Source: Escherichia coli
Lineage (GTDB): Bacteria > Pseudomonadota > Gammaproteobacteria > Enterobacterales > Enterobacteriaceae
DNA length: 64,000 nucleotides
Direction: 5' to 3' (one strand)
NCBI RefSeq assembly: GCF_045037415.1
Contig: NZ_CP173438.1
The first letter of the stretch is position 1. The number at the start of each line of letters is the position of its first letter. The notes below the pieces were generated by a model. That model saw only the letters and a list, made by a program, of their open reading frames with translations. It searched no databases and was not told the origin of the DNA. A program made the position numbers and the translations under genes. This document shows, piece by piece, positions 1 through 23,458 of the stretch.

Positions 1-2
1 AG

Positions 3-1625
3 CGTCAGTCGTTCGAGCCGCACTGGCGCGAGTTGAGTGATTACATCAACCCGCGTGGTTCCCGCTTTCTGACTTCTGAGGCCAACCGTAACGATCGGCG
101 CAATACACGCATTATTGATTCGACCGGGACTATGGCGGCGCGCACTCTCGCCAGCGGCATGATGTCAGGCATCACAAGCCCCGCGCGTCCGTGGTTTCGC
201 CTGGCTACGCCAGATCCTGAAATGATGGATTATGGCCCTGTTAAGTTGTGGCTTGAGGCGGTGCAGAACCGCATGAACGATATGTTCAATAAGTCGAATC
301 TCTATCAGTCTCTGCCGCAGTTATACGGAAGCCTCGGCACATACAGCACTGGTGCAATGGCAGTGCTGGAGGATGACGAGGACATCATTCGCACAATGCC
401 ATTCCCGATAGGCAGTTACTACCTGGCTAACTCACCTCGTGGCAGTGTGGACACCTGTTTTCGCAAGTTCTCTATGACTGTTCGTCAGCTTGTTCAGGAG
501 TTCGGGCTAAATAACGTCAGCGAATCCGTAAAAAGCATGTGGGAAAGCGGCACCTACGAGAAGTGGATTGACGTGATGCATTCGGTTTACCCGAACATTG
601 ACCGCGATACATCGAAGCTGGATAGCAAGAACAAGCCATTCAAATCGGTTTATTACGAGGTTGGTGGCGATAACGACAAGTTGTTGCGTGAGTCCGGATT
701 TGATGAGTTTCCAATTATGGCTCCGCGCTGGGAAGTTAACGGCGAAGATGTTTATGGATCATCATGCCCGGGTATGCTGGCGCTTGGACCTGTTAAGGCA
801 TTGCAGCTTCTCCAGAAGCGCAAGTCGCAGTTGATTGATAAAGCCACCAATCCGCCGATGGTTGCTCCGACTTCCCTCAAGAATCAGCGCGCCTCCCTTC
901 TTCCTGGCGACATCACGTATATCGATCAGATTACTGGTCAGGATGGCTTCAGGCCTGCTTATCTGGTTAACCCCAGTACAGCAGATTTGGTAGCAGACAT
1001 TCAGGACACTCGTCAAATCATTAACAGCGCCTACTTTGTCGATCTGTTCATGATGTTGCAGAACATCAATACCCGCTCGATGCCTGTTGAAGCGGTGATC
1101 GAAATGAAAGAAGAAAAACTTCTGATGTTGGGGCCGGTTCTGGAGCGCCTGAACGACGAATGTCTTAATCCTCTCATTGACCGCGCTTTCTCGATGATGG
1201 TGCGTAAAAACATGCTGCCGCCACCGCCAGACGTGATGGAAGGTATGCCCCTGAAGGTCGAATACATTTCCGTCATGGCTCAGGCGCAGAAGTCTATCGG
1301 CCTGTCCAGTCTGGCGTCCACGGTTAACTTCATTGGTCAACTTGCGCAAGCGAAACCAGAAGCTCTCGACAAACTCAACGTTGATCAGGCGATCGATGCA
1401 TTCGCTGATATGTCCGGAGTGTCTCCAACCGTCATTGTTCCGCAGGAACAGGTTGAGCAGGCTCGCCAGCAACGGGCACAGCAGCAACAGCAACAACAAA
1501 TGATGGCGGTGGGGATGGCGGCGGCACAGGGTGCCAAGACGCTAAGCGAAGCTAAAACTTCGGATCCGAGTGTTTTGACAGCTATGGCGAATGCAGTTAG
1601 TGGTCAGGGTGGGCAATCACAATGA
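3..1625 (+). CDS. Portal (head-to-tail connector) protein, 5' end outside window
   Basis: Frame is open to the window edge; at least 540 aa; sits just upstream of scaffold and capsid genes; Gln-rich C-terminus. Confidence 0.7.
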   Translation, partial: RQSFEPHWRELSDYINPRGSRFLTSEANRNDRRNTRIIDSTGTMAARTLASGMMSGITSPARPWFRLATPDPEMMDYGPVKLWLEAVQNRMNDMFNKSNLYQSLPQLYGSLGTYSTGAMAVLEDDEDIIRTMPFPIGSYYLANSPRGSVDTCFRKFSMTVRQLVQEFGLNNVSESVKSMWESGTYEKWIDVMHSVYPNIDRDTSKLDSKNKPFKSVYYEVGGDNDKLLRESGFDEFPIMAPRWEVNGEDVYGSSCPGMLALGPVKALQLLQKRKSQLIDKATNPPMVAPTSLKNQRASLLPGDITYIDQITGQDGFRPAYLVNPSTADLVADIQDTRQIINSAYFVDLFMMLQNINTRSMPVEAVIEMKEEKLLMLGPVLERLNDECLNPLIDRAFSMMVRKNMLPPPPDVMEGMPLKVEYISVMAQAQKSIGLSSLASTVNFIGQLAQAKPEALDKLNVDQAIDAFADMSGVSPTVIVPQEQVEQARQQRAQQQQQQQMMAVGMAAAQGAKTLSEAKTSDPSVLTAMANAVSGQGGQSQ

Positions 1626-1918
1626 CAGATTACGAAGACGATCAACTGAAAGAAGAAAACGCCCGTAAGCAACGTGACATGGCGCAGCGTGAAATTGATG
1701 ACATTCGCTTTGTCATGAGCAGTGAACAAGGGCGTCGCGTTGTCTGGTCGGTGCTGGAGAAAGGCCGTGTGTTTTCCGCTATCTCACCGATGGACGCTAT
1801 GGCAATGGCATTTAATGAGGGGCAACGCAATCTGGCGCTGGAACTGTTTCAGCGCGTTATGGCGCATTGCCCTGAACAGTATTTGAAGATGGCCAAAGAG
1901 GCCAGTGAACAGGAGTGA
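1622..1918 (+). CDS. Hypothetical phage protein (98 aa)
   Basis: ATGA overlap with portal stop; co-oriented in the late operon. Confidence 0.6.
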   Translation: MTDYEDDQLKEENARKQRDMAQREIDDIRFVMSSEQGRRVVWSVLEKGRVFSAISPMDAMAMAFNEGQRNLALELFQRVMAHCPEQYLKMAKEASEQE

Positions 1919-1920
1919 TC

Positions 1921-2616
1921 ATGAATTTATTTGAGCGTTTGCTGTATCGCCGTCTTTGCAATGAGCAACCAGTCGATGGTGGAGCAGCTCCGGCTGCGTC
2001 AGAACCGTCAGCGCCTGCAGGTGATAACCCTGCTCCAGTTGGTGATCCATCACAACCGGAAGGTGATAAGCCACAACCTGTTGCTGATGGCGATAAACCT
2101 GCTGATGACAAAAAGCCTGAAAACGATAAGCAGGGTGAAAAAAAGGACGGCGATAAACCAGAGGGTGCGCCTGAGAAGTACGAGTTTCAGGCTGCCGAAG
2201 GCGTAGAGCTGGATACAGAAGCGTTGAAGGAATTCGAGCCGGTGGCGCGAGAACTTAACCTGACCAACGAGCAAGCGCAAAAGCTGGTTGATGCTTATCC
2301 GAAGATTCTGGCAGGTGTTCAGCAGCGCCAGGCAGAAGCCTGGCAGAAAACAACCGAGCAGTGGGCTGCGGATGTAAAAGCTGACAAAGAAATCGGTGGC
2401 GGCAAGTTGATTTCTAACCTTAGCGTCGCACAGCGTGCGCTTGACCAGTTCGGGACACCTGAACTCAAAGAATATCTGAACACCACCGGGCTGGGTAATC
2501 ACCCTGATCTGGTCAAAACGTTCGTGAGAATCGGAAAGGCGATGTCTGAAGATGGCATGGTCACCGGTGGTAATGAAGGCCAGCGTAGTGCGGCCGAAGT
2601 GCTCTATGGCAAATAA
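1921..2616 (+). CDS. Putative scaffolding protein
   Basis: AGGAG RBS then ATG at 1921; acidic Pro/Lys/Asp-rich N-terminus then helical region; position between portal and capsid. Confidence 0.6.
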   Translation: MNLFERLLYRRLCNEQPVDGGAAPAASEPSAPAGDNPAPVGDPSQPEGDKPQPVADGDKPADDKKPENDKQGEKKDGDKPEGAPEKYEFQAAEGVELDTEALKEFEPVARELNLTNEQAQKLVDAYPKILAGVQQRQAEAWQKTTEQWAADVKADKEIGGGKLISNLSVAQRALDQFGTPELKEYLNTTGLGNHPDLVKTFVRIGKAMSEDGMVTGGNEGQRSAAEVLYGK

Positions 2617-2624
2617 GAGAGGAA

Positions 2625-3617
2625 ATGACAATGGCTGTTAAAGGCTTAACTGCGCTAACGCTGGCTGACTGGGGTAAGCGCGTCGATCCAAACGGGAAAG
2701 TCGATAAGATTATCGAGCTTCTCGGTCAAACAAACCCGATCCTTCAGGATATGCCTTTTGTCGAAGGGAACCTTCCTACCGGACACCGAACCACCATTCG
2801 TTCTGGTTTACCTTCAGCTACCTGGCGTTTGCTGAACTATGGCGTACAGCCAAGCAAATCAACCACAGTGCAGGTAACCGATTACGTTGGCATGCTGGAA
2901 ACCTATGCTGAAGTCGATAAGTCACTGGCTGATCTGAACGGTAATACTGCCGAATTCCGCCTGTCTGAAGACCGCGCATTTATTGAAGCGATGAATCAGC
3001 AGATGGCGCAGACACTGTTTTATGGTGATTCCAGCGTTAACCCTCAGCAGTTTATGGGACTGTCCTCCCGCTATTCCAGCCTGTCTGCGGGTAATGCTCA
3101 GAACATCATTGATGCTGGTGGCACGAGTACAGATAACACCTCAATCTGGTTAGTGGTGTGGGGCGAAAACACCGTGCATGGCATCTTCCCGAAAGGGCAG
3201 AAGGCTGGCATCCAGATGGAAGATAAAGGCCAGGTGACACTGGAAGATGCGAATGGCGGCAAGTACGAAGGCTACCGTACCCATTACAAATGGGACAACG
3301 GACTTGCTCTGCGTGACTGGCGTTATGTTGTTCGCATTGCAAACATCGATGTCAGCAATCTTTCAGAACCTTCCTCTGCCGCAAATATTGCGAAGTTGAT
3401 GGTTAAAGCACTGCATCGCATTCCAAATCGTGGCATGGGTCGCCCGGTGTTCTACATGAACCGCACTGTAGGCCAGGCTCTTGATCTGCAATCTCTGGAG
3501 AAAACATCTCTGGCGATCAGCGTAAAAGAGACAGAAGGCGAGTGGTGGACTTCATTCCGTGGTGTACCAATCCGTGAAACTGATGCGCTTCTGGAAACAG
3601 AAGCCCGCGTGGTGTAA
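2625..3617 (+). CDS. Major capsid protein (about 330 aa)
   Basis: Position after scaffold; size typical of HK97-fold capsid proteins; ATG at 2631 has the better RBS spacing; stem-loop immediately downstream. Confidence 0.7.
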   Translation: MTMAVKGLTALTLADWGKRVDPNGKVDKIIELLGQTNPILQDMPFVEGNLPTGHRTTIRSGLPSATWRLLNYGVQPSKSTTVQVTDYVGMLETYAEVDKSLADLNGNTAEFRLSEDRAFIEAMNQQMAQTLFYGDSSVNPQQFMGLSSRYSSLSAGNAQNIIDAGGTSTDNTSIWLVVWGENTVHGIFPKGQKAGIQMEDKGQVTLEDANGGKYEGYRTHYKWDNGLALRDWRYVVRIANIDVSNLSEPSSAANIAKLMVKALHRIPNRGMGRPVFYMNRTVGQALDLQSLEKTSLAISVKETEGEWWTSFRGVPIRETDALLETEARVV

Positions 3618-3668
3618 CGCCTGTTATTAACCTGTGGGTCGTAACAGACCCACTAATGGAGAAAGAAG

Positions 3669-4106
3669 ATGATCACCGACAAACTGTTGATGTTCTCCGA
3701 AGCTCAGGCGGTTACGAATACCGCGGCTTCTACTGACGTAATCGATCTCGGTCCAATTGACGGAAAACGTCGTGATATCGGCGTGGGTTATCCGCTTGAG
3801 TTTTGGGTGCTGGTTAACGAAGCCGCCACGGCAAGTGGTGAGGAAACTGTAAACATCCAGTTGCAGACGAGTGAGAATAACAGCTCATGGTCCACTATTT
3901 ATGATAGTGGCGCACTGGCAAAGGATACCCTGACAGCAGGTAAACGAGTTGTTTCTGCAAAGGTGCCTGCCGGTGTTCAGCGATATCTGCGTGTTAACTA
4001 CTCCGTCGCAACTGGCCCACTAACGGCTGGCGAATTCACTGCTGGTATCAGTCTTGATGTTGATGCCAATACGCCGTATCCGATCCGCTCAAAAGTAACT
4101 GGTTAA
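3669..4106 (+). CDS. Hypothetical virion protein (145 aa)
   Basis: ORF with RBS (GGAGAAAG) in late operon. Confidence 0.55.
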   Translation: MITDKLLMFSEAQAVTNTAASTDVIDLGPIDGKRRDIGVGYPLEFWVLVNEAATASGEETVNIQLQTSENNSSWSTIYDSGALAKDTLTAGKRVVSAKVPAGVQRYLRVNYSVATGPLTAGEFTAGISLDVDANTPYPIRSKVTG

Positions 4107-4116
4107 GGTGATATTT

Positions 4117-4452
4117 ATGTCAGGTGAGAAACCAAGATACCGCGTTCTGCGCCTCTCTCATATCCATAACACTCTGTGGCCGGAGGGGGCAGAAATCGAA
4201 TACGAAGGTGAGCCTGGTAGCGCACTGGAACCTGTTAACGATGCAGCCAGACAGGCAAAAGCAAAGGTAGCAGGAAAGGTGTCTATGGCAGCAACCAGCA
4301 CCAAAATCATCAACGATGTGTCAGATGATGGTGAACTGGATAAGCTCCGTGAAGAGTACGAATTGCTCTTTAACGAGAAGCCACACCATAACGCCAAAGC
4401 AGAAACGCTCCGCGAGAAGATCGCAGATAAGCGTAAAGAACTGGGCGTGTAA
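4117..4452 (+). CDS. Hypothetical phage protein (about 111 aa)
   Basis: ORF in late operon; ATG at 4117 preceded by AAGGTG. Confidence 0.55.
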   Translation: MSGEKPRYRVLRLSHIHNTLWPEGAEIEYEGEPGSALEPVNDAARQAKAKVAGKVSMAATSTKIINDVSDDGELDKLREEYELLFNEKPHHNAKAETLREKIADKRKELGV

Positions 4453-4502
4453 GCCTCGCGGATGAGACAAGGGGCTTCGGCCCCTTTATTGCAGGAGTGT
4501 AT

Positions 4503-4826
4503 ATGGAACTCGTAAACCTCAAAACCGGCACTGACAGCTACCAGGATGAGAGCGGAGAAACCAGAACTCGCGATGAATACCCGTGGGGGCTGTGCATCAC
4601 GCTGAATAACGACACATTGAATAAGCTGAAGGCGCAACCTCAGGGCGTCGGAACAGAAGTGATGATAACTGCAAAGGCTGTTATCCGAGGCCTGTCTGCC
4701 AGAGAAACTGACGATGGCGTTAATCGCAGCGCCGATCTGCAGATCACTGATATGGCGATCGCTCCTGTTTCCGGGGATGTAGAAAAATCAGCGGCTGAAA
4801 CTCTGTACGGTAACGGAGGTGAGTGA
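4503..4826 (+). CDS. Small virion protein, possible capsid decoration protein
   Basis: CAGGAG RBS then ATG at 4503; size and position match a small capsid-associated protein in epsilon15-type layouts (inference). Confidence 0.45.
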   Translation: MELVNLKTGTDSYQDESGETRTRDEYPWGLCITLNNDTLNKLKAQPQGVGTEVMITAKAVIRGLSARETDDGVNRSADLQITDMAIAPVSGDVEKSAAETLYGNGGE

Positions 4827-5431
4827 TGGCCTCTGTAGTAGAGATCTGTAATCGTGCGCTGTCCAATATTGGCAACAGCCGCAGCATTAACAGCCTGACG
4901 GAAGCCAGCAAGGAAGCGGGGGAATGTTCGCTGCACTTTGAGGCCTGCCGTGATGCTGTGCTTTCTGATTTTGACTGGAACTTTGCTACCAAACGCGTGG
5001 CGCTTGCAGATACGAGCAATCCACCGCCTGACTGGGAATATGCGTACCAGTACCCGTCAGATTGTCTGCGCATTACTGAAATTATGCTTCCTGGTGTACG
5101 CAATCCAACAGCAGCAATGCGCGTTCAGTACGAAGTTGGTGCAGACACCAACGGAACAGGAAAATTGATCTACACAGACCAGCCGCAGGCATGGCTCAAG
5201 TATGTCTCTCGCGTTTCAGATGTAAACATGTTTGATGCCATTTTTATGGAGGCGCTGGCCTGGCGTCTTGCGGCAGCCATTAACATGGCGCTGACTGGGA
5301 ATGCGGATCTCGGTACATTTGCTCTCAATATGTACAATCGCGTGATTCTTAGTGCTGGCTCGCATAGCCAGAATGAATCACAGGAACCACAGCCACCGGT
5401 TGACGAGTTTACCATTGCGAGGTTGTCCTGA
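4826..5431 (+). CDS. Tail tubular protein A-like adaptor (about 200 aa)
   Basis: GGAGG RBS; size and position before a roughly 820-aa protein as in T7 gp11/gp12. Confidence 0.55.
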   Translation: MASVVEICNRALSNIGNSRSINSLTEASKEAGECSLHFEACRDAVLSDFDWNFATKRVALADTSNPPPDWEYAYQYPSDCLRITEIMLPGVRNPTAAMRVQYEVGADTNGTGKLIYTDQPQAWLKYVSRVSDVNMFDAIFMEALAWRLAAAINMALTGNADLGTFALNMYNRVILSAGSHSQNESQEPQPPVDEFTIARLS

Positions 5432-7902
5432 TGGCTATCAGTTGGATCCAGCCCAGCTTTGCCGGTGGTGAGATTGGACCGTCGTTGTACGGGCGTATTG
5501 ACATGGCGAAGTACCAGGTGGCATTGCGCAAGTGCGATAACTTTATCGTGCGGCAGTATGGCGGCGTTGAGAATCGACCAGGTACGCGTTTTGTCGGTGC
5601 CGCCAAATACCCAAATCGGAAATGCCGCCTGATCCCGTTCCAGTTCTCGACGGTTCAGACCTATGCTCTGGAGTTCGGACACCAGTACATGCGCGTTATC
5701 AAAGATGGTGCGTTGGTGCTGAACAGCAGCAATGTTATTTATGAAATTGCCACGCCATATACTGAAGCCGATCTGTTCCGAATTAAATTCACGCAAAGCG
5801 CCGACGTGCTTACGCTTGTTCATCCGGCATACCCGCCGAAAGAGTTGCGTCGCTATGCGCATGACAACTGGCAACTGGTTGATGTGGTAACGAAGAACGG
5901 ACCATTTGAAGATATCAATATTGACGAGTCAGTGACGGTTTATGCCAGCGCCAGCACCGGGACAATTACGTTAACGGCAAGCGCCTCTATTTTTGGCGCG
6001 GAGCAGGTAGGCAAATTGTTCTATCTGGAACAGCCTGCAGTGGATTCTGTGCCGGTATGGGAAACCAGTAAGAGTACGTCAATTGGCGATATTCGCCGTG
6101 CAGACAGTAACTACTATCGCGCCGTTACAGTAGGCAAAACAGGCACTTTGCGCCCTTCGCATACAGAAGGCACATCATGGGATGGCTGGGGCGGATCCGG
6201 TGATGATGATACCGGCATTGAGTGGGAGTATCTGCACAGTGGTTTTGGCATTGCCCGTATCTCTGCTGCAAATGGAACTACTGCAACTGCCGAGGTGATT
6301 TCCTATATCCCTTCGCAGGTAGTTGGCGAGGATAATGCCAGCTATAAATGGGCTAAATATGCCTGGAACAGTGTTAATGGTTATCCTGGCACTGTTGTTT
6401 ATTATCAACAACGTCTTTACTTCGCCGCATCGACTGCGTTTCCTCAGACTATCTGGGCCAGCCGTACCGGGGATTATAAGGATTTTGGCAAAAGCAATCC
6501 TACGCAGGATGACGACAGAATTATCTACACCTATGCCGGGCGTCAGGTTAATGAGATCCGCCACCTGATTGATGTTGGTTCGCTGGTGGCGCTGACTTCC
6601 GGAGGTGAGTACGTCATCACTGGCGACCAGAACAAAGTGCTTACCCCATCATCATTTGCATTCAGCTCTCAGGGATCAAATGGCTCGAGCAATGTCCCAC
6701 CAATTGCCGTGGCGAATATTGCTCTGTTCGTCCAAGAGAAAGGCAGTGTTGTCCGTGATCTGGCCTACTCATTCGATGTTGACGGCTATCAGGGGAACGA
6801 CCTGACCATCCTTGCCAATCATCTTTTTCAGAAGCACAGCATTGTTGACTGGTGCTTCTCGATAGTCCCTTACTCCAGCGCCTTCTGCATTCGTGATGAC
6901 GGTAAATTACTGGTGATGACCTATTTGCGTGATCAGCAGGTTTTTGCATGGGCACCACAATCCAGTACCGGAAAATATGAAAGCACATGCAGTATCAGCG
7001 AAGGAAATGAAGATGCGGTGTATTTCGTCGTTAACCGAACCGTTAACGGGCAAACAGTGAGATACATCGAGCGACTGTCCAGCCGTTTATTTACCAGCGA
7101 TGAAGATGCTTTCTTTGTTGATTCTGGCCTTAGCTATGATGGAAGAAATACGTCTGACAGAACGATGATCATCACTGGTGGTTCTGGCGAATGGGATTAC
7201 CGCGAGGAATATACAATCAGTGTTTCTGGTGGTGCGTACTTCACCAGTAGTGATATCGGTGCCCAACTACAGTTCCCTTATACCGGAACTGATCCTGATA
7301 CTGGCGATGAAGTGTCAAAAGAATTACGTTGCGACATTATTTCTGTAACCAGCAATACCGCTGTAGTGGTTCGTGCTAACAGGAACGTCCCGCCATCCCT
7401 CAGGAATGTGGCCACCACGAACTGGCAGATGGCGCGCCGGACATTTGGAGGCCTGTCTCATCTTGAAGGCCAGACCGTAAACATTCTCTCTGATGCGAAC
7501 GTGGAACCACAGAAAGTGGTTTCCGGAGGTGCCGTCACGCTGGAATCTCCGGGGGCTGTAGTGCACATCGGCCTGCCAATAACTGCTGAATTCGAAACAC
7601 TGGATATCAACATTAACGGACAGGAAACGCTGCTGGACAAAAAACAGGTGATCCCCTCCGTTACTCTGGTTGTGAATGCCAGTCGCGGCATCTGGGCGAC
7701 TACGCCCGGCGGTAAATGGTACGAATATCCACAGCGTGAATTCGAGTTCTACGATGATCCTGTTGATGATGCTACCGGAAAAGTAGAAGTGAAACTGGAC
7801 AGTAACTGGGGCAAAAACGGACGTGTAAAAATCCGTCAGCTTGATCCGTTGCCGCTGTCTGTTCTTGCCGTTATTCCTCGCCTTACTGTTGGGGGATTCT
7901 GA
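5431..7902 (+). CDS. Tail tubular protein B-like nozzle protein (823 aa)
   Basis: ATGA overlap with upstream gene; size and position equivalent to T7 gp12. Confidence 0.55.
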   Translation: MAISWIQPSFAGGEIGPSLYGRIDMAKYQVALRKCDNFIVRQYGGVENRPGTRFVGAAKYPNRKCRLIPFQFSTVQTYALEFGHQYMRVIKDGALVLNSSNVIYEIATPYTEADLFRIKFTQSADVLTLVHPAYPPKELRRYAHDNWQLVDVVTKNGPFEDINIDESVTVYASASTGTITLTASASIFGAEQVGKLFYLEQPAVDSVPVWETSKSTSIGDIRRADSNYYRAVTVGKTGTLRPSHTEGTSWDGWGGSGDDDTGIEWEYLHSGFGIARISAANGTTATAEVISYIPSQVVGEDNASYKWAKYAWNSVNGYPGTVVYYQQRLYFAASTAFPQTIWASRTGDYKDFGKSNPTQDDDRIIYTYAGRQVNEIRHLIDVGSLVALTSGGEYVITGDQNKVLTPSSFAFSSQGSNGSSNVPPIAVANIALFVQEKGSVVRDLAYSFDVDGYQGNDLTILANHLFQKHSIVDWCFSIVPYSSAFCIRDDGKLLVMTYLRDQQVFAWAPQSSTGKYESTCSISEGNEDAVYFVVNRTVNGQTVRYIERLSSRLFTSDEDAFFVDSGLSYDGRNTSDRTMIITGGSGEWDYREEYTISVSGGAYFTSSDIGAQLQFPYTGTDPDTGDEVSKELRCDIISVTSNTAVVVRANRNVPPSLRNVATTNWQMARRTFGGLSHLEGQTVNILSDANVEPQKVVSGGAVTLESPGAVVHIGLPITAEFETLDININGQETLLDKKQVIPSVTLVVNASRGIWATTPGGKWYEYPQREFEFYDDPVDDATGKVEVKLDSNWGKNGRVKIRQLDPLPLSVLAVIPRLTVGGF

Positions 7903-8366
7903 TGATCGATGTTCAAATTATTCCCGCAACCGAAGAGCATCTTCAGATGATTTTGCCGGATGTTCGTCAGGCTGATATTGACGAACTGTATGCGGTATCA
8001 CTGATGACTACCGAAGATGCGCTGCGTGTTGGTCTGCGTACTGCGACTATGGCCTGGTCAGGATTTGCGAACGGAGAACTGGTAACCATGTTTGGCGTAT
8101 CTCCGGCGTCAATGATCGGTGGCAATGGTACGCCATGGCTGGTAGGAACCAGCCGTATTGAAAAATATCAGAAGACATTTCTTCGCCACTGCCGCCCTGT
8201 ATTGCAGCAGATGCTGGCAGTTTATCCGCGTCTGGAAAACTACGTCGACGAGCGAAACCATGTTGCCAAAGCATGGCTCCACTGGCTTGGATTCAGGCTT
8301 GAAGAAGCCGCGCCTTATGGTGCTCTTGGTCTTAATTTCCACAGATTTCACATGGAGAGAAAATAA
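7902..8366 (+). CDS. Hypothetical virion protein (154 aa)
   Basis: Overlapping start and stop in late operon. Confidence 0.55.
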   Translation: MIDVQIIPATEEHLQMILPDVRQADIDELYAVSLMTTEDALRVGLRTATMAWSGFANGELVTMFGVSPASMIGGNGTPWLVGTSRIEKYQKTFLRHCRPVLQQMLAVYPRLENYVDERNHVAKAWLHWLGFRLEEAAPYGALGLNFHRFHMERK

Positions 8367-8905
8367 TGTGTAACCCAGCCATCGCTTTGGTTGCCGTCAC
8401 AGTGGCATCCACAGCCGCGTCAATGTACAGCCAGAGCAAGCAGGCAAAATACCAGTCAGCCATAGCTGATCGGAATGCTGAAATTGCTGAAGCTCAGGCA
8501 CAGGATTCAATCAATCGTGGGAATATTGAAGCGGATCAGCGTCGTCGTGAAATGCGTCAACGCTCAGGCACTGCGGCGGCCACTATGGGGGCTACCGGTG
8601 CGGAATTAAGTAGCGGAACAGCTCTTGACGTTTTTGCGGATAATGCTCAGTTCGGCGCTCTTGATGCGTTAACGACAGTGAATAATGCTCAGCGTGAGGC
8701 ATATGGGTATCAGGTTCAGGGAATGAATGCTCAGGCACAGGGGGCTGCTGCTCAGTCGGCTGCTAAATCATCGATGACCAGCACTTTGTTAACAGCACCA
8801 CTAAAAGCATACGGTGCATACCAGATGGGCGGAGGAACGTGGAGCCCATTCTCTCAGAAGGCTGCGCCGATTTCTGCTGCTGTTGGCACTCCAACCGGTC
8901 GATAA
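8366..8905 (+). CDS. Internal virion protein with hydrophobic N-terminus (179 aa)
   Basis: TAATG overlap; hydrophobic N-terminal segment; position equivalent to T7 gp14. Confidence 0.5.
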   Translation: MCNPAIALVAVTVASTAASMYSQSKQAKYQSAIADRNAEIAEAQAQDSINRGNIEADQRRREMRQRSGTAAATMGATGAELSSGTALDVFADNAQFGALDALTTVNNAQREAYGYQVQGMNAQAQGAAAQSAAKSSMTSTLLTAPLKAYGAYQMGGGTWSPFSQKAAPISAAVGTPTGR

Positions 8906-15929: not shown

Positions 15930-16310
15930 ATGAGAAAAGTATTTTTGATTTTTGGATTTATGCTTCTCGTTGGATGCCAGTCAGCTGCACAGTTTGAAAG
16001 AAATATGCTTACGTGGCGCGGGCAGAGTATAGACGCAATGGTTCAGCAGTGGGGGTATCCTCAGGGAGAGCTTACATCTCCAGATGGAAACAGAGTGTAT
16101 GTTTACTCAAGCTCTGGTAGTTATAACGTACCACAAACCACAACGTATAATACTACGTCTAATCTAATTGGTAATACTATATATTCAAACACATACGCAA
16201 CAACTGATGGCGGTTATACACTCCATTTCAGTTGCTCTGTTTACGTTGAGTTTGGTGCTGATAAGATTATTAAAAATGTTACATGGCGCGGTAATAATTG
16301 CGTTGCGTGA
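15930..16310 (+). CDS. Lipoprotein (moron), 126 aa
   Basis: Signal peptide MRKVFLIFGFMLLVGC with lipobox LLVGC; AT-rich context; terminator directly downstream. Confidence 0.7.
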   Translation: MRKVFLIFGFMLLVGCQSAAQFERNMLTWRGQSIDAMVQQWGYPQGELTSPDGNRVYVYSSSGSYNVPQTTTYNTTSNLIGNTIYSNTYATTDGGYTLHFSCSVYVEFGADKIIKNVTWRGNNCVA

Positions 16311-16319
16311 CATGTCACA

Positions 16320-16343
16320 GGCCGCTTTCGCGGCCTTGTTTTT
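16320..16343 (+). terminator. Rho-independent terminator after lipoprotein gene
   Basis: GGCCGC-TTTC-GCGGCC hairpin followed by TTGTTTTT. Confidence 0.7.
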
Positions 16344-16503
16344 AACGAATGCCACCGCCACCCGGGCGGGAATCCGCAGAACGCCCACCGCAGCGGGAGC
16401 CGTCAGCAGCAGTGTCGCTGTCGTGCTGACAACGACCGGCAAAGGCCTGAGTTGAAGCTACCAGAGACAACAAAACGAACAGTGCAGCAAATGCTTTTTT
16501 CAT
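16342..16503 (-). CDS. Possible small secreted peptide (53 aa)
   Basis: Signal-peptide-like N-terminus MKKAFAALFVLLSLVASTQAFA; GC-rich low-complexity mature part with two Cys; weak RBS. Confidence 0.3.
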   Translation of the reverse strand: MKKAFAALFVLLSLVASTQAFAGRCQHDSDTAADGSRCGGRSADSRPGGGGIR

Positions 16504-16601: not shown

Positions 16602-17234
16602 TTAATGCAGTTTATCTTTGCTTATAACCAGTAGTCTGTGGGTATGCACATCTTTATCACTGCCCCAACAGAAATCAGCCCACTGGCTATAGAAATCATC
16701 CCATGATGTCATGAAGCTAAGAGGTCTATCTTCTTCAGAGCCATCTGAAACGTATACATTATATCCTGGGGTGTTTATAGCCCAAGAAATCATTCTTTCC
16801 CAGAATCTTCTCCCATCGATTGTTTGTTGCTCATCAGATACAACGATCGCATATTGCTCTAGGAAGAACTGAAAAAAAATCTGAGGCAAACCATGAACAG
16901 CACGGTCATGAATAACATTAGGCGTACGCCATACCATGATCTGCGTACATGTTCTTTTGGCTTCGACGATATCTTCCCGAAAGATTAACTTAACCGCATA
17001 CACCGTTTCTGGAGTATCGCTGGTAGTAATCATTCTGTAATGATCGCCATTACAAGATTTTACAAGGCGATAACCATAAGGTGTTGTGAATCCCGGAAGA
17101 ACGAAATCAACCACACCTTTCGCTAAGTAGCTTTCGGTGTGACTAGTGTTCTTCTCAGACATGTTCAGTTTTCTATCGAAATCTGCTTCTGGGATAATGT
17201 ATGGCATCGCTTTTCTTGTTGTATTTGTTCTCAT
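16602..17234 (-). CDS. Uncharacterised cargo protein, 210 aa
   Basis: Strong RBS GGGAGG 5 nt before ATG; own sigma70-like promoter and operator upstream; no family recognised; AT-rich. Confidence 0.75.
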   Translation of the reverse strand: MRTNTTRKAMPYIIPEADFDRKLNMSEKNTSHTESYLAKGVVDFVLPGFTTPYGYRLVKSCNGDHYRMITTSDTPETVYAVKLIFREDIVEAKRTCTQIMVWRTPNVIHDRAVHGLPQIFFQFFLEQYAIVVSDEQQTIDGRRFWERMISWAINTPGYNVYVSDGSEEDRPLSFMTSWDDFYSQWADFCWGSDKDVHTHRLLVISKDKLH

Positions 17235-17380: not shown

Positions 17381-18037
17381 TCAGAAGAACCCTGCCTTGT
17401 CGTTGATGTACTCCGCGTGCGTCTGGATATCACGCAGGCATTTGCTCACACCAACGATGTAGCAGAACATGGTGGTCAGCTCCGCCGCCGCGCCCGATAC
17501 GTCGTGCCCGTCGTCCTGTAACTGGTTCAGCAGATTCATCAGCAGTGAGTTCTCCGTCAGGCCGAGAACACCAGACGGCGAGTGAATCAGGCTGCGGTAG
17601 CCGGGCTTCAGTGGGGCACTGTATTCTTTTTTGTCTTCCAGCTTGATCGCCTCCATAATGGCGGGCATGAAGCCTGACAAGACCTTCTCCACTTTTGTTT
17701 CTTGTTGTCTTAAACGTTTCTCGCATTCAATGAAGTAGCGTCGCACCTGGCGACCTTTTTCGTTACGCTCGACCATCGCCAGCTCTTTGGCTGTATCAAG
17801 GGTGAGGTGGTACTCTTTGCGGTTGTGGCCGCCTCTACCAGATGTTTGCTTTCCCAAATTGGAAAGCAAAATATAGTCTTGATTTTCAATGAATTCGTAT
17901 TCTGATATGCGATTTGTAATCCATGCTGCAAACACCTTTTTAACACCTAAAAAAGCGTGCAGATCGCGGGCATTACAAAGTAGGGCTGTTTCGTTAGATA
18001 TAGTGCCGTTGAATACGGGGATGAGTTGAGCGTTCAT
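17381..18037 (-). CDS. Antirepressor-like protein: AntA-type N-terminal domain plus C-terminal domain paralogous to the small SOS-controlled protein
   Basis: GGAG RBS; N-terminal motif [27 protein letters not shown] typical of AntA/AntB antirepressor domains; C-terminal 70 aa about 40% identical to the 18357-18614 product. Confidence 0.65.
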
Positions 18038-18196
18038 GATGGCGTCTCCACTTAGCGAATTACATCACCACCGCTGAGAACCAATCAGATGGTGGTGAAC
18101 TGAACGGAGTTGGTCTTACCGGCCTAAGTGGTACCGGCGTCCTTTCGGACCCCCATTCAGCCCACCATAATTCTGGCATGACTGTGCTATACGCAT

Positions 18197-18218
18197 AAAA
18201 AAACCACGTCTGGCGTGG
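18197..18218 (-). terminator. Putative rho-independent terminator between the small SOS-controlled gene and the antirepressor gene
   Basis: CCACG-N5-CGTGG hairpin followed by seven U on the minus strand; short stem. Confidence 0.4.
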
Positions 18219-18308
18219 TATGCGCCACTTAGTAATCCGGGAGAACCAATCCCGGCACTGGATTTTGCCAGTGCCCGATTACTATGGCACAAGAGGAGTG
18301 CGATGTAA

Positions 18309-18327
18309 ATTTACCGCAAAGGTAAAT
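18309..18327. promoter_or_regulatory. Operator-like palindrome ATTTACC-N5-GGTAAAT (copy 2)
   Basis: 7-bp inverted repeat with 5-bp spacer, same core as copies 1 and 3. Confidence 0.45.
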
Positions 18328-18356
18328 ATAAGCACTCCATTTGGTAATTTCAAACC

Positions 18357-18614
18357 TTATCTGGTTTGTTTTCGTAATTGTTCGGCACAATAGTCGAGAT
18401 GTGTTTGCAGATCCTGCATAGACATCTGTGAGCTGGTGACGTAGTTAATCAGTGCAGTCAGTTCGGCAAGTGGGCCATCGACATTAAATCCATCCTTATC
18501 GAGATCCCGGAGTAATTTCATCAAGTGCGATCCCTCCACCAGTGACCTGACGCCTCCCGGCGTGTGAATCCTTTCGGTAAATCCGTCTTCCAGTGGATAG
18601 TGATACTGCTGCAT
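18357..18614 (-). CDS. Small SOS-box-controlled protein (about 85 aa), candidate SOS-inducible antirepressor
   Basis: GGAGAA RBS before ATG at 18614; LexA box 19 nt upstream; homologous to C-terminus of the adjacent AntA-like protein; ORF track extends to 18737 but upstream part covers promoter and operator. Confidence 0.6.
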   Translation of the reverse strand: MQQYHYPLEDGFTERIHTPGGVRSLVEGSHLMKLLRDLDKDGFNVDGPLAELTALINYVTSSQMSMQDLQTHLDYCAEQLRKQTR

Positions 18615-18633
18615 CTTATCTTCTCCATGCAAT

Positions 18634-18653
18634 AACTGTATATTTATACAGTA
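18634..18653. promoter_or_regulatory. LexA (SOS) box
   Basis: AACTGTATATTTATACAGTA matches the E. coli LexA consensus TACTGTATATATATACAGTA at 18 of 20 positions, with CTGT-N8-ACAG intact. Confidence 0.75.
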
Positions 18654-18689
18654 GCAAATAATTTGTTTGCTATCCAGCACGTTTTGCAA

Positions 18690-18706
18690 ATTACCTGAAA
18701 GGTAAT
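18690..18706. promoter_or_regulatory. Operator-like palindrome ATTACC-N5-GGTAAT (copy 3) upstream of the LexA box
   Basis: Perfect 6-bp inverted repeat with 5-bp spacer. Confidence 0.5.
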
Positions 18707-18809
18707 ATCTATTCGTATTTACAGCCTTTCTATCCATATGTGGTTTTCCAGGTAATAGAATAACCAGATATGCGGCGCAACGGGTGCTGCGACTATCTGG
18801 AGATTTAAC

Positions 18810-21461
18810 ATGACGGTTTCAACCGAAGTTGACCACAACGAATACACCGGTAACGGAGCTACGACATCATTTCCGTATACCTTCCGTATTTTCAAAAAAT
18901 CCGACCTGGTTGTTCAGGTGTCTGACCTGAACGGGAACGTAACAGAATTGGTTCTGGATACTGACTACACAGTAACCAATGCTGGAGGATATAATGGCGG
19001 TAATGTAATTCTGTCGAAGGCGTTGGCTAACGGTTATCATATTTCTATATCACGAGAGCTCCCGGTTACGCAGGATACTGATTTGCGTAATCAGGGTAAG
19101 TTCTTCGCTGAGGTACATGAAGACGCGTTCGATAAACTGACAATGCTTATTCAAAAGTGTTTTTCATGGATGAGGTTAGCACTTATAAAACCAAGCATTC
19201 TGGCTAACTATTATGATGCAAAAAATAATAAGATATCAAATCTAGCAAATGCCACTGACAGAAACGATGCTGTCAATAAAGGTTATGTTGATGATCTTTT
19301 TACTGGAGGTGTAACGCCTACATCTAACAGCGCTAAAAACGATATTTTTACAAATCACCAAAGAAAGATTGTAGCTACGATGCCGCTTCTTTTTCCTGAA
19401 TATGATGCGATTATGGCTGCTAACCCGTCAGCAACTTATATGTATCCTCAAGGATTCTGCGTTAGCGAAGATTTGATATACATCACTTATCCATTTGAGC
19501 CTAAACAGACGAATAATGTCGTCGCAGTATTTAACATATCTGGTATTTATCAAGGTTATTTCTATGTTCAGGCTGGCGGCCCAGGCTTCGCTGCTGAAGG
19601 AATCGTGGTTACGTCAGACTATGGCCCCAAAAAAATGTTTGTTGGTCACACAAACGGAATACTGCGTGAATTTAATATGGAGGGGGCATTATACGGAAGC
19701 AATCTGCCTCTTGTACAAAACCATGATGTTGGATTATTCAACCAGTTCAGCTACAGAAGAGGTATATGGCTCGTTGAGCAGAATGCGCCAGAAGTAGGAC
19801 AGAAAATCACAAGAACTGTACTTGCAGTGTTCGACAGTGGTTTCAATCGCCTGTCAACTATAACGCTGCCGTTACATGATGTTGGGTATGTAACTAAAAG
19901 CACCTCACCTTATGCGCCTTATTTCAACAAGCGTCAGGGTATTGCGGTAGGTGATAACTACTTTGTCTGCGGCTATGGCGGCTTCATAGCTGATGGGGCA
20001 GGAAGCGCAGGATATAACGAATATCAGGGCAGCAAAGTTTTTAACCCTGACGGTACAAAGCGAACTGAATCAATGCTTCATCCTCAGGCCATGATGGATT
20101 TAATGAAAGCCGCAGGATTGAACGTCACTCGCATAGAAAATGAAGGCGTTTGTGTTTCTCAGGATGGAAAATCCATTTATTCACTTTACATTCATCAGGA
20201 AAGAACTGGCTCTGAACCTTACAATTCAGGTTTGGTTATTTTCGAAGATTTCTCCACTGATAAAGATGCTATCGATTTTACACCTGCATCCAGGCTTTAC
20301 CGCGGATTTGATATCGATCACGCGAGCATTGGGGTATATCCCCGTAGTGCGAAGGGGATTGTTAACCCTGTAGATGGTACGTTGTTCACTAACATGACTG
20401 AAATTCTTCGCTATATGCAGGAGATGAGTCAGAAGGCATTTAATTTTTACACAGGGACTGTCAGCATTGCTGATATATCTGGCGTGGCAATCCCTTCCAG
20501 CACATATGTTGAAATACTGAATGCGAATAATCAGACTTTTATAGTCAACTATTATTCATCTGATAGTGGCATTAGTTATTTGGTTGCAACTAATCCTTCT
20601 GGTGACTTTGTATTTGTGCGCCAGCGACCGGCACAGTGGGCATCTAACTTAACCATTCAGCAAAACGCAGATCCTGATACAAACCAATTAAACCGCATCA
20701 CTGCATCATCATATGCCGGTGCAACTACAAACTCTCAGAAAATATTGGTCCTTGACCAGCAGGCTACAGCTAGCGCAAATAGCTTGGTATTGGGCGGTAG
20801 TTCTTCTGTGTTTAGGTCTGCCACCACGGTGGATATTGCATGCAACAGCGACCCGACAGCATTGGGAGGAACCATACGCTGGCGGTTTTATGATACAGGT
20901 CTTCGCCCGTTTGCTGACAATACCTATAATTTTGGTCAGGCATCGTTTCGTATTAAAGACGCCTACTTTGCAAATGCCCCAACCGTTTCATCAGATGCCA
21001 CGCTGAAAACCAATCCCGAGGCAATATCAGATTTAAGTGAAATGCTTTCTTCTGATAGAGACAGCATTCTTGATGCCTGGGGCGATATTTCTGTTGTGGC
21101 GTATCGATGGCTCGACGCTATATCCATGAAGGGCGATGGTGCCAGATGGCATTTTGGCGTCATGGCTCAGCAGGTAAGGGATGTATTCTTGGCGCACGGA
21201 ATTGATGGAACCAGATTTGGCCTTCTTTGCTATGACGAGTGGGATGATATTTTTGAGCCGGTAATCGCGACTAAAGAGATTACCGATACGTCTGGTGAGT
21301 TGGTCACCGTCGAATATGACACCGGAGAACAGAGGCTGGTTAAAAAAGCGGGTAGTTCATGGGGTATACGGCCTGACCAGTGCGCTTGGCTTGAGGCTGC
21401 ATATCAGCGCCGTCGATGCGATCGTATTGAAGAGCGACTCGAACTATTGGAATCAAAATAA
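18810..21461 (+). CDS. Tailspike protein with C-terminal intramolecular chaperone (peptidase S74-like) domain, 883 aa
   Basis: RBS CTGGAG; conserved-looking N-terminal virion-anchor region; C-terminal block (RWHFGVMAQQVRDVF...) resembles the self-cleaving chaperone domain of endosialidases and tail fibres. Confidence 0.75.
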   Translation: MTVSTEVDHNEYTGNGATTSFPYTFRIFKKSDLVVQVSDLNGNVTELVLDTDYTVTNAGGYNGGNVILSKALANGYHISISRELPVTQDTDLRNQGKFFAEVHEDAFDKLTMLIQKCFSWMRLALIKPSILANYYDAKNNKISNLANATDRNDAVNKGYVDDLFTGGVTPTSNSAKNDIFTNHQRKIVATMPLLFPEYDAIMAANPSATYMYPQGFCVSEDLIYITYPFEPKQTNNVVAVFNISGIYQGYFYVQAGGPGFAAEGIVVTSDYGPKKMFVGHTNGILREFNMEGALYGSNLPLVQNHDVGLFNQFSYRRGIWLVEQNAPEVGQKITRTVLAVFDSGFNRLSTITLPLHDVGYVTKSTSPYAPYFNKRQGIAVGDNYFVCGYGGFIADGAGSAGYNEYQGSKVFNPDGTKRTESMLHPQAMMDLMKAAGLNVTRIENEGVCVSQDGKSIYSLYIHQERTGSEPYNSGLVIFEDFSTDKDAIDFTPASRLYRGFDIDHASIGVYPRSAKGIVNPVDGTLFTNMTEILRYMQEMSQKAFNFYTGTVSIADISGVAIPSSTYVEILNANNQTFIVNYYSSDSGISYLVATNPSGDFVFVRQRPAQWASNLTIQQNADPDTNQLNRITASSYAGATTNSQKILVLDQQATASANSLVLGGSSSVFRSATTVDIACNSDPTALGGTIRWRFYDTGLRPFADNTYNFGQASFRIKDAYFANAPTVSSDATLKTNPEAISDLSEMLSSDRDSILDAWGDISVVAYRWLDAISMKGDGARWHFGVMAQQVRDVFLAHGIDGTRFGLLCYDEWDDIFEPVIATKEITDTSGELVTVEYDTGEQRLVKKAGSSWGIRPDQCAWLEAAYQRRRCDRIEERLELLESK

Positions 21462-21558
21462 GACCAAATTTAGGTAATTATTATCCGTAAATGGTTTATT
21501 GTGTATGATGGACCTCATCTTCTAAGGGGGTTTTTATGCACAATAAACGGTGGTTACC

Positions 21559-21960
21559 ATGAATGGCACGGTTACGGCGGATTCACTGAATCAAGGGTTA
21601 AGCTTGGGTGCGCTGGCCTCTGTCGTCTACGGCGTTCCGCCAGAGGTGGCTCTCGGTGCTCTGGCTGGTGCGGTAATATTTGTTACCTCTGCTGTAGAGT
21701 ATCCTGTTCGTCGTCGTGTACTCTTGTCGATACTCAGCTTTCTTTGTGGTCTTCTCTTTTACAAACCAACAACATCAATTCTTATCGGAATAGCCAGCAT
21801 GATACCTACCATCACGCAGGACTCTTTCGAGAAAGGGATTGTTTTCTCTGCTGGCGCATTCGTGTCAGCAATTGTCGCAGTGCGAATTGGTATATGGCTC
21901 TATCACCGTTCTGATAATCCACGCCAGTTAATTCCTGGGAGAAAAGGCGATGGTAACTAA
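21559..21960 (+). CDS. Membrane protein with about four TM segments (holin or antiholin candidate)
   Basis: Hydrophobic helices; immediately upstream of holin-like and endolysin genes. Confidence 0.45.
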   Translation: MNGTVTADSLNQGLSLGALASVVYGVPPEVALGALAGAVIFVTSAVEYPVRRRVLLSILSFLCGLLFYKPTTSILIGIASMIPTITQDSFEKGIVFSAGAFVSAIVAVRIGIWLYHRSDNPRQLIPGRKGDGN

Positions 21961-22258
21961 TGAGCTTGTTTTGCTTATCACCAATGCAATTATTTGTACT
22001 GGCATAGCAATTCGCGTTGTCACATTCCGGCGTAACGGCTCTCAACATCGAAGATGGGGAGGGTGGCTTGCTTATTTCCTTATTGTTGCTGCGGCCAGTA
22101 TTCCTGTTCGTGTCGCCTATGCAATCTGGTTACGTACGCCAATGGCTGTGGATTTATCTGAGGTCATTATCAACGCTGTCATGCTTGCCGCGGTTATTAA
22201 AACACGCGGTAACGTTGTTCAGATTTTCAAAACATCGAGGTCTAAACATGGAGATTAA
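21950..22258 (+). CDS. Putative holin (102 aa, about three TM segments)
   Basis: Small membrane protein with charged C-terminus directly before the endolysin. Confidence 0.55.
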
Positions 22259-22877
22259 ACAATTCCAGCGAGCTGCTGGTATTAGCGAGGCTCTGGCCGC
22301 ACGCTGGTTCTCGCATATAACTTCTGCGATGAAAGAGTTTGGTATCAGAAAACCCGAAGATCAGGCAATGTTTATTGCTCAGGTCGGGCATGAGTCTGGT
22401 GGCTTCACCAGGTTGCAGGAGAATTTCAATTACAGCGTCACCGGACTGGCTAACTTCGTTCGTGCCGGTCGTCTTACTCAGGGACAGGCTAACGCATTGG
22501 GTCGTCGTGCAGGCGAGCCACCATTGCCACCTGAGCGCCAGCGTGCGATTGCCAATCTGGTGTACAGCAAACGCATGGGGAACAATGCCTCTGGTGATGG
22601 CTGGAATTACCGTGGCCGCGGACTTATCCAGATTACCGGTTTGAATAACTATCGTGATTGCGGAAACGGCCTGAAAGTGGACCTGCTGGAGAATCCTGAA
22701 CTGTTGGCGCAGGACGAATACGCGGCTCGTAGCGCGGCGTGGTTCTTCTCCAGCAAAGGTTGCATGAAGTATACCGGCGATATTGCACGTGTAACTCTGA
22801 TTATCAATGGTGGCAGGAATGGCATCGACGACCGGCGCGTGCGGTACATCACTGCCAGTAAGGTGCTGGCGGTATGA
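22248..22877 (+). CDS. Endolysin, glycoside hydrolase family 19-like
   Basis: GAGG RBS then ATG at 22248; motif [12 protein letters not shown] and [12 protein letters not shown] typical of GH19 lysozymes; ORF track start at 22017 is an in-frame upstream extension. Confidence 0.75.
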
Positions 22878-23371
22878 TCTGGGCATTCGCAAAAGCATAC
22901 CGGAAACAGTTGGTTGTCATGGCGATGCTTGCTGTTCTGGTCATATCAGGAGTTGTTGCCTGGAATGTGCATGGCAGCCGCCAGTACGATGCCGGGTATG
23001 CTCAGGCGAAGGAAGATCAGAAACAGGCTGATGATAAGTTAAGGTCACAGCGTGAGCAGGAGAAAACACAAATTGAACGTGAAGCACAATCCCGTATCGA
23101 TGCGGCGCGTGCTGATGCTGAGTATGCTAATTCCGCTGCTGACAGCATGCGCGCCGAGCTTGACAAAACCAGGCGGCTCGCCGAACACTATACCGGATCT
23201 TTCCCCCCTGGCACGCCAGCCAGCAAGGTCATCGGTGTGCTCGCCGACATGCTTGAAGAAAGCAACCGAGTTTACAACGCAACAGCAGCTGAGGCTGAAA
23301 AGTATCGTATCGCAGGGGAATTCTGCGAGCAGCAATACGATTCACTGAAGAAGCAAAAATCGTGGCACTGA
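22874..23371 (+). CDS. Rz-like i-spanin
   Basis: ATGA overlap with endolysin; N-terminal TM segment then charged coiled-coil region. Confidence 0.65.
23100..23348 (+). CDS. Rz1-like o-spanin lipoprotein embedded in the Rz gene (+1 frame)
   Basis: Lipobox LLTAC followed by a Pro-rich sequence; fully embedded in the spanin gene; start codon uncertain. Confidence 0.5.
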   Translation: MRRVLMLSMLIPLLTACAPSLTKPGGSPNTIPDLSPLARQPARSSVCSPTCLKKATEFTTQQQLRLKSIVSQGNSASSNTIH

Positions 23372-23458
23372 TTTCCGGTGACGGTATATAAAACGGTACG
23401 GTGAAAATCAGGTTACAGAAAGTTGTTACCAGTCAATTGGTTATGCATGCCGTAAATA

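Follow-up and report, generated by a model that had tools for sequence, protein, structure and literature searches.

The first 23.4 kb of a 64,000-nucleotide stretch of Escherichia coli DNA (contig NZ_CP173438.1 of assembly GCF_045037415.1; the whole stretch is called the window below) carry the late genes of a prophage, and this locus raises the question of which phage lineage the genes belong to, whether the element that they form part of is complete, and how far its resemblance to phage T7 goes. A preliminary description of the same DNA had proposed a phage of the epsilon15/phiV10 type from gene order and protein size, and had likened the region to T7 genes 8 to 17 almost gene for gene. The analysis reported here makes it very probable that positions 1-23475 hold the late genes, for virion assembly and lysis, of a temperate phage with a short tail that belongs to the phiV10/epsilon15 group (Uetakevirus) and was integrated at the 3' end of guaA by a tyrosine integrase. 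The window contains the right-hand 23.4 kb of this prophage of roughly 40 kb.

Lineage and boundaries of the prophage

When the region was compared by megablast with 50,697 phage records, it was 97.8% identical to phiv142-3 over 79% of its length, 98.0% identical to vB_EcoP_ZX5 (ZX5) over 68%, 96.2% identical to phiV10 over 77%, 81% identical to Enterobacter phage Tyrion over 78%, and 75.6% identical to epsilon15 over 34%; the isolated phages phiV10, phiv142-3, ZX5, HEMP4 and PAS61 shared 96-98% nucleotide identity over 68-79% of the region. From the portal to the 824-amino acid (aa) protein, 13 of the 14 proteins aligned full-length with their phiV10 counterparts at 95-100% identity, the exception being a protein of the gp14 family (64%), and the same series matched epsilon15 in the same order at 28-88% identity. 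The synteny with phiV10 and epsilon15 was one-to-one and full-length from the portal to gp17, and it held also for the tailspike, the lysis cassette and the phage attachment site attP. All late genes from the portal to Rz/Rz1 aligned full-length and without frameshifts with those of phiV10, identity falling in the tailspike and in Rz. The list of open reading frames (ORFs) bore out the previously described order and sizes of the late genes, which are tightly packed and all on the plus strand. The guanine-plus-cytosine content drops from about 0.51 to 0.43-0.46 across 16-22 kb, the site of the variable genes. At least 80% of the region was present in 64 of the 5,426 complete E. coli genomes surveyed.

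The part of the prophage that lies to the left of the window was taken from a near-identical reference genome, that of E. coli strain 447 (NZ_CP183089), which is 99.99% identical to the window, with three differences in 27 kb (at 18819, 18079 and 19323); two 1-bp insertions or deletions separate the two sequences. Whole-element intergenomic similarity, computed on the 40,004-bp element of strain 447, was 76.5% to phiV10 and 36.3% to epsilon15. The guideline of the International Committee on Taxonomy of Viruses for a genus is a nucleotide intergenomic similarity of at least about 70% to a genus member. The value obtained with phiV10 lies above this guideline and below the 95% used here as the species line, which makes the element a member of Uetakevirus and would make it a separate species. 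Measured BLAST similarity, synteny and attachment core all agree with the family proposed from order and size, and the similarities show that the lineage could be placed from gene order and size alone.

The attachment (att) core published for phiV10, epsilon15 and ZX5 is the 17-bp sequence ATTGAGTGGGAATGATT (PMC9782041). It occurs once in the window, where no occurrence was expected by chance, and marks the right end of the prophage (attR; Table 1); the end coordinate of the preliminary description, 23458, was right to the base, since the core begins one base later. In strain 447 there is a second core, 40,004 bp farther left, which overlaps the stop codon of guaA. Between the two cores, that genome carries a tyrosine integrase gene, recombination genes, a helix-turn-helix repressor-like gene, DnaT-like and P replication genes, terS, terL and a transfer RNA gene for arginine (tRNA-Arg), followed by the genes of the window. 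The integrase, of the P4 type, is encoded 190 bp beyond the attL core. This is the far end, as expected from the phage genome, where attP is flanked by the lysis cassette and int. The terminase genes are located upstream of the portal. The presence of both att cores and of the left-end genes in strain 447 indicates that the prophage is not truncated at its left end, so that a truncation of this kind, named in the preliminary description as a possible objection, is not borne out in the near-identical genome. That description had placed the integrase and repressor outside the window and had left intactness unjudged; in strain 447 the element is complete. Viable phages closely related to this one lysogenise their hosts by integration at guaA (PMC9782041). 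The prophage is an ordinary, apparently complete element of a well-known kind, a species-level newcomer within a well-described group, and its importance beyond correct annotation is slight; its right boundary is now fixed to the base.

The tRNA-Arg gene of strain 447 is on the minus strand between terL and the portal gene, approximately 780 bp left of the window start, and Rfam also matched a tRNA at the corresponding site of phiV10. To the right of attR the window continues with ordinary core genes, from yfgI to maeB. A strong terminator-like hairpin, AAAACCCTCTGTTACTACAGAGGGTTTTTT, is located just right of attR at 23497-23530; it is probably the terminator that originally belonged to guaA, with 40 kb of prophage now in between. 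Farther along, the host gene ypfG (approximately 57842-58886) is a pseudogene that has no connection with the prophage: it is split into two overlapping ORFs, of 188 and 196 aa, and the annotation of strain 447 marks it as frameshifted.

Table 1. Features of the prophage region, in window coordinates
Feature	Position	Strand	Evidence
Portal gene, 5' end cut by the window edge	1-1625 (in frame from base 3)	+	Pfam PF12236 Head-tail_con
98-aa Bbp19-like small protein	1622-1918	+	Pfam PF25181 Phage_Bbp19 E=2.8e-17; 99% identity to phiV10p08
231-aa acidic protein, probable scaffold	1921-2616	+	Position, composition; phrog_458 'protease'
Major capsid protein, 328 aa, BPP-1/epsilon15 gp7 type	2631-3617	+	Pfam PF20911 GP7 E=2.9e-148
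145-aa Bbp16-type capsid cement protein	3669-4106	+	Pfam PF21190 Bbp16 E=2.6e-47
111-aa epsilon15 gp9 homologue	4117-4452	+	100% identity to phiV10p12, 40% to epsilon15 gp9; phrog_590
107-aa epsilon15 gp10-type capsid 'staple' protein	4503-4826	+	Pfam PF21628 Gp10-like E=1.1e-51
201-aa head-to-tail adaptor, T7 gp11 fold	4826-5431	+	PDB Carin-1 'Connector protein' 8ck1_E E=2.9e-26
823-aa tail nozzle	5431-7902	+	PDB Carin-1 'Tail Nozzle' 8ck1_A E=1.2e-217
154-aa internal virion protein, positional equivalent of T7 gp13	7902-8366	+	phrog_308
179-aa internal core protein, T7 gp14 family	8366-8905	+	Pfam PF24072 T7_gp14 E=3.3e-8
837-aa internal/ejection protein, peptidoglycan-hydrolase domain	8918-11431	+	PDB matches, residues ~249-399
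600-aa virion internal protein, epsilon15 gp16 homologue	11428-13230	+	98% identity to phiV10p19, 32% to epsilon15 gp16
824-aa virion internal protein, epsilon15 gp17 homologue	13236-15710	+	99% identity to phiV10p20, 28% to epsilon15 gp17; phrog_684 virion structural
126-aa predicted lipoprotein, cargo	15930-16310	+	Signal peptide, lipobox LLVGC
53-aa secreted or membrane-associated cargo peptide	16342-16503	-	phrog_14503 'membrane associated protein' moron; signal-peptide-like N-terminus
210-aa cargo protein	16602-17234	-	phrog_1349 unknown; 3 phage records; not in phiV10, epsilon15
218-aa Ant antirepressor	17381-18037	-	Pfam PF08346 AntA E=4.2e-26; phrog_377 anti-repressor Ant
C4-type antisense RNA upstream of ant	18088-18172	-	Rfam RF01695, 61.2 bits (gathering 45), full-length
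IsrK-like small RNA	18197-18274	-	Rfam RF01394, 60.9 bits (gathering 50), full-length
85-aa protein, phiV10p24/epsilon15 gp19 homologue	18357-18614	-	97.6% identity to phiV10p24, 51% to epsilon15 gp19
883-aa tailspike	18810-21461	+	epsilon15-type N-terminal anchor, swapped receptor-binding part, C-terminal intramolecular chaperone
133-aa holin-like membrane protein	21559-21960	+	Pfam PF16931 Phage_holin_8 E=8.7e-12
102-aa holin	21950-22258	+	Pfam PF05449 Phage_holin_3_7 E=7.5e-27
209-aa glycoside hydrolase family 19 (GH19) endolysin	22248-22877	+	Pfam PF00182 Glyco_hydro_19 E=1e-9; 95% identity to phiV10p29
165-aa Rz-type inner-membrane spanin	22874-23371	+	Pfam PF10721 DUF2514 E=4.6e-21; 52% identity to phiV10 Rz
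82-aa Rz1-type outer-membrane lipoprotein spanin, within Rz, +1 frame	23100-23348	+	Lipobox LLTAC
attR core, 17 bp, prophage right end	23459-23475	+	Exact match to the published core

Virion genes and the extent of the T7 parallel

A tblastn search against T7 genes 6-19.5 returned nothing below E=0.5, and the link to T7 was therefore tested by profiles and folds. In an all-against-all hhalign comparison of 15 window families with 10 T7 proteins (150 pairs, with 3-sequence profiles), the three best pairs were syntenic, namely the portal with gp8, the 154-aa protein with gp13 and the 179-aa protein with gp14. The signal of the 154-aa protein, the second best pair, was weak (E=1.2e-3 over 77 columns). 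The tailspike N-terminus ranked seventh with gp17, at E=0.03 and at matching positions, and it scored 21.6 bits against Pfam PF03906, under the cut-off of 25.2. The 179-aa protein reached 34.1 bits against PF24072, for which the cut-off is 27; being 64% identical to phiV10 and 68% to epsilon15, it is the most divergent structural gene.

The portal gene retains 540 of its 559 codons, the first 19 being lost because the window begins 57 nt inside the gene. Its product is 98.5% identical to phiV10p07 and 80.8% identical to epsilon15 gp4, and it matches the T7 gp8 family PF12236 at E=1.3e-183, with 474 of the 489 profile positions covered, as well as the solved portals of Carin-1 (PDB 8ck0, E=4.5e-173) and of the T7-like cyanophage P-SCSP1u (E=2e-5). 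The AlphaFold model of the adaptor, with a predicted local distance difference test (pLDDT) score of 82.6, retrieved in Foldseek the Carin-1 chain 8ck1_E (1.6e-16; the Dpo31 paper and the description in Foldseek identify entry 8ck1 as Carin-1), LME-1 (3e-10), T7 gp11 (7box_M, 6.7e-7, template modelling score 0.55) and many other T7-like adaptors. The nozzle is 88% identical to epsilon15 gp12; a 26-sequence profile built for it matched a 'nozzle gp13' (23sh_T, E=5.4e-6), and hhalign paired it with T7 gp12 at E=6e-4 and a probability of only 28%, the region aligned being the same in each of the two.

As for the preliminary claim of a parallel with T7 genes 8 to 17, its gene order was upheld, and homology is now supported for portal, adaptor, nozzle and gp14-family protein, but the region departs from T7 at four points. 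Four head genes (encoding the Bbp19-like, Bbp16 cement, gp9-homologous and gp10 staple proteins) lack a T7 counterpart, there are three large internal proteins instead of the two of T7, with no detectable similarity to them, a lysogeny-control block interrupts the late genes, and the terminase genes precede the portal. The architecture is thus T7-like, the homology is partial and remote, and the element stands outside the T7 family. In epsilon15 itself, a T7-like internal core is located above the portal, and a trans-envelope tube is formed during infection (PMC5850374).

Regarding the three large internal proteins, residues 249-399 of the 837-aa protein matched PDB 9vvp_L (Gp29, E=1.2e-38) and the endolysin 7q47 (E=3e-17), and the PHROGs assigned to this protein were phrog_992 (head protein) and phrog_7182 (tail injection transglycosylase). 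The 600- and 824-aa proteins had no Pfam or NCBIfam match, and a PDB sequence search with them gave chance-level hits or nothing; neither they nor the 837-aa protein gave an hhalign signal with T7 gp15 or gp16 in the 150-pair comparison. The 600- and 824-aa proteins of a widespread phage group are thus still without solved or recognisable relatives.

The 231-aa protein encoded between portal and capsid is called a 'peptidase' or 'protease' by NCBI, PHROGs and RefSeq, including most of the named entries among those listed, a label whose origin appears to be an early remark on similarity in the entry for epsilon15. This protein matched no family of Pfam or NCBIfam, and it gave no hhalign signal with T7 gp9 in the 150-pair comparison. 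Its N-terminal ~85-95 residues form a stretch in which Pro, Ala, Asp, Glu and Lys abound and whose length differs among homologues. Its isoelectric point is 4.65 vs 4.31 for T7 gp9, and its predicted model (mean pLDDT 43) begins with a disordered part, beyond which it consists entirely of helices and lacks strands. Moreover, the 328-aa capsid protein aligned end to end with the similar-sized BPP-1 and epsilon15 capsid chains, so that there is hardly space for an N-terminal propeptide removed by cleavage. Because of its position between portal and capsid, its acidity, the disordered-plus-helical model, the lack of a peptidase family and the uncleaved look of the capsid, a scaffold is a plausible and, we infer, a better reading of the 231-aa protein than a peptidase, a label that lacks family or fold support.

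The capsid protein matched BPP-1 (PDB 3j4u, E=4e-127), Carin-1 (8cjz, E=6e-86) and epsilon15 gp7 (3j40, E=3e-84), was 99% identical to that of phiV10 and 43% identical to that of epsilon15, and gave no hhalign signal with T7 gp10 among the 150 pairs. It was also observed that the capsid, cement, gp9-like and staple proteins (2631-4826) are 35-43% identical to those of epsilon15, whereas the portal, adaptor and nozzle are 81-88% identical, and that, of the Bordetella phage BPP-1 and epsilon15, it is BPP-1 that gives the higher capsid score. This contrast in identity, together with the BPP-1-leaning capsid, points to a history of the head-shell genes that differs from that of the portal and tail genes. 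In a late region that is otherwise 95-100% phiV10-like, the gp14-family protein (64%) and Rz (52%) are strikingly divergent, which suggests local gene replacement.

Tailspike, variable block and lysis genes

The tailspike is a composite protein. Residues 1-161 are 76% identical to phiV10 and residues 1-228 are 61% identical to epsilon15, whereas residues 165-883 are absent from phiV10 and have their counterpart, at 70.7% identity, in two wastewater Kayfunavirus phages, which are lytic and T7-like; the C-terminus matched Pfam Peptidase_S74 (E=2.9e-12) and PDB 3gw6 (E=4e-39). The receptor-binding part (window 19300-21461) was found in 18 of the 5,426 complete E. coli genomes. This part has been exchanged between temperate and lytic podoviruses, which bears on host-range prediction and on the choice of depolymerases. 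In the deposited sequence of strain 447 an extra C at codon 4 (window 18819) frameshifts the tailspike gene, and it is because of this 1-bp insertion that the Prokaryotic Genome Annotation Pipeline (PGAP) calls there an 847-aa tailspike from a later ATG; the window copy is intact from the ATG at 18810. Only 97 bp separate the tailspike gene from the first holin-like gene, and the oac (O-acetyltransferase) gene of phiV10 is absent. In phiV10 lysogens, superinfection immunity comes from this O-acetyltransferase.

Between the gene for the 824-aa protein and the tailspike gene there is a 3.1-kb block (15.7-18.8 kb), mostly on the minus strand, that the preliminary description had left out. The 126-aa lipoprotein encoded in it has a 100% identical copy in phage ZX5, was found in 3 phage records and is missing from phiV10 and epsilon15; its gene is followed by a strong terminator-like stem (16319-16336). 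No Pfam or NCBIfam match was obtained for the 126-, 53- and 210-aa cargo proteins, and PADLOC found no defence-system match among five proteins of the block. We give a low probability to the idea that one of the cargo genes, that of the 126-aa lipoprotein or that of the 210-aa protein, encodes a new factor that excludes superinfecting phages or modifies the surface and that goes with the swapped tailspike.

The remainder of the block has the look of a regulatory switch. The C4-type RNA is co-oriented with ant and lies 50 nt upstream of it, and the IsrK-like RNA contains a terminator-like stem (18219-18203, minus strand). Both RNAs are present in phiV10 before a Bro-N antirepressor and neither is present in epsilon15. 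As predicted from these matches, the tandem of C4 and IsrK-like RNAs upstream of ant is an arrangement in the style of P1 immI.

The lysis cassette (Table 1) follows the tailspike. Its Rz1 gene, which shows weak similarity to the Rz1 frame of phiV10 and epsilon15, had also been missed in the preliminary description.

Protein families and the published epsilon15, T7 and Carin-1 structures together allow the following working model. A single rightward late operon would provide a T7-type portal, the probable scaffold and an HK97-fold capsid decorated with cement and staple proteins, as well as the gp11-type adaptor and the gp12-type nozzle. The internal core would be made of the gp13-like and gp14-family proteins and the three large proteins, which would be ejected to bridge the cell envelope, the first of the large ones (837 aa) bringing a cell-wall hydrolase domain. 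Six trimeric tailspikes, attached via the epsilon15-type N-terminal anchor, would most likely recognise and cleave a surface polysaccharide, probably the O antigen, and lysis would be carried out by the holin(s), the GH19 endolysin and the Rz/Rz1 spanins. The leftward block formed by the C4/IsrK-like RNAs and ant would act as a P1 immI-style switch that keeps ant silent in the lysogen; the stretch between the core genes and the tailspike gene also holds the three cargo genes.

Alternative readings and relation to known phages

A membership of the T7 family proper (Autographiviridae), to which the T7-type portal, adaptor, nozzle and gp14-family proteins in T7 order might point, has a negligible probability, since no significant pairwise similarity to any T7 protein was obtained, the terminase is upstream of the portal, the capsid is of the BPP-1/epsilon15 type with decoration proteins, and the element is temperate, with an integrase, a repressor-like gene and att sites, and has no annotated RNA polymerase gene in the 40 kb of strain 447; it was the lack of an annotated phage RNA polymerase and the presence of the lysogeny module that led to its rejection. 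There is scarcely any more likelihood that the late region derives from P22-like phages (Lederbergvirus) or from another, unrelated podovirus and that its gene sizes are similar by chance. Prophages of the P22 type are common in E. coli and Salmonella and also have tailspikes and Ant antirepressors, but here every structural protein matches phiV10 or epsilon15, so that the different phage lineage contemplated in the preliminary description was not encountered; the portal falls into the Pfam family of T7 gp8, adaptor and nozzle resemble those in the tails of Carin-1, LME-1 and the T7 type, and no Pfam or PHROG scan of the region returned a P22-type family. This origin was rejected on the measured similarities.

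More weight, although still little, has to be given to a phiV10-like prophage that is defective (cryptic) and produces no infectious particles, which we regard as improbable. Decay is frequent among prophages, the tailspike gene of strain 447 has the 1-bp insertion at codon 4 and a shortened PGAP gene, the early region of that strain includes one partial DUF551 pseudogene, and the state of the present copy, including its inducibility, is judged from its sequence. This inducibility, which is a prediction, also counts against the reading of an apparently complete Uetakevirus prophage, as do the content of the left 16.5 kb, which is extrapolated from a genome 99.99% identical over the shared 27 kb, the putative scaffold, which relies on position, composition and a low-confidence model, the roles proposed for the 837-, 600- and 824-aa proteins, which would follow from homology to epsilon15 virion proteins and one hydrolase domain with no detectable gp15/gp16 similarity, and the tailspike substrate, which is a prediction. 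Nevertheless, none of the late ORFs of the window is shortened with respect to phiV10, the tailspike gene has an unbroken frame, the att cores at the two ends are perfect, the integrase, repressor-like, replication and terminase genes are present, and relatives at 96-98% identity have been isolated as viable phages, all of which argue for an apparently complete Uetakevirus prophage rather than for a cryptic one.

Among the named Uetakevirus phages, phiV10 (NC_007804) shares with this prophage the order from portal to Rz/Rz1, the att core and the integration at guaA. It differs in that the tailspikes diverge beyond residue ~160, in that phiV10 has oac between the tailspike and holin genes, where none is found here, in the type of antirepressor (AntA here, Bro-N in phiV10), and in the three extra cargo genes present here at 15.9-17.2 kb. 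The best nucleotide matches, phiv142-3 and vB_EcoP_ZX5, are isolated temperate Uetakeviruses, and for ZX5 the integration at the guaA 3' end via the same 17-bp core has been shown experimentally (PMC9782041). The former has the same Ant gene and the latter the identical gene for the 126-aa lipoprotein, but neither has the receptor-binding part of this tailspike or the 210-aa gene. With epsilon15 (NC_004775) the prophage has in common the late order from gp4 to gp17, gp20, the lysis cassette and the att core, and the portal, adaptor and nozzle are 81-88% identical, whereas the capsid, cement, staple and 600/824-aa proteins are 28-43% identical; epsilon15 lacks the ant/C4/IsrK block, and it carries O-antigen polymerase serotype-conversion genes, none of which is present at that place here.

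The likeness to T7 consists of the same order of portal, scaffold position, capsid, adaptor, nozzle, gp13-like, gp14-family, large internal and fibre/spike genes, and of a cell-wall hydrolase domain in one internal protein (the 837-aa protein here, gp16 in T7). In contrast to T7, this element has a tailspike with a chaperone domain instead of a fibre, has the terminase upstream rather than downstream of the portal, and is temperate, without an annotated RNA polymerase. The closest solved structures are those of Carin-1, a podovirus of Cobetia marina (cryo-electron microscopy entries 8cjz, 8ck0 and 8ck1), and of the Bordetella phage BPP-1 (3j4u). Although these two phages infect other hosts and the relationship is at the protein level only, the portal (E=5e-173), nozzle (E=1e-217), adaptor (E=3e-26) and tailspike N-terminal anchor (E=2e-25) resemble those of Carin-1, and BPP-1 shares the capsid (E=4e-127) together with the Bbp16 and Bbp19 families.

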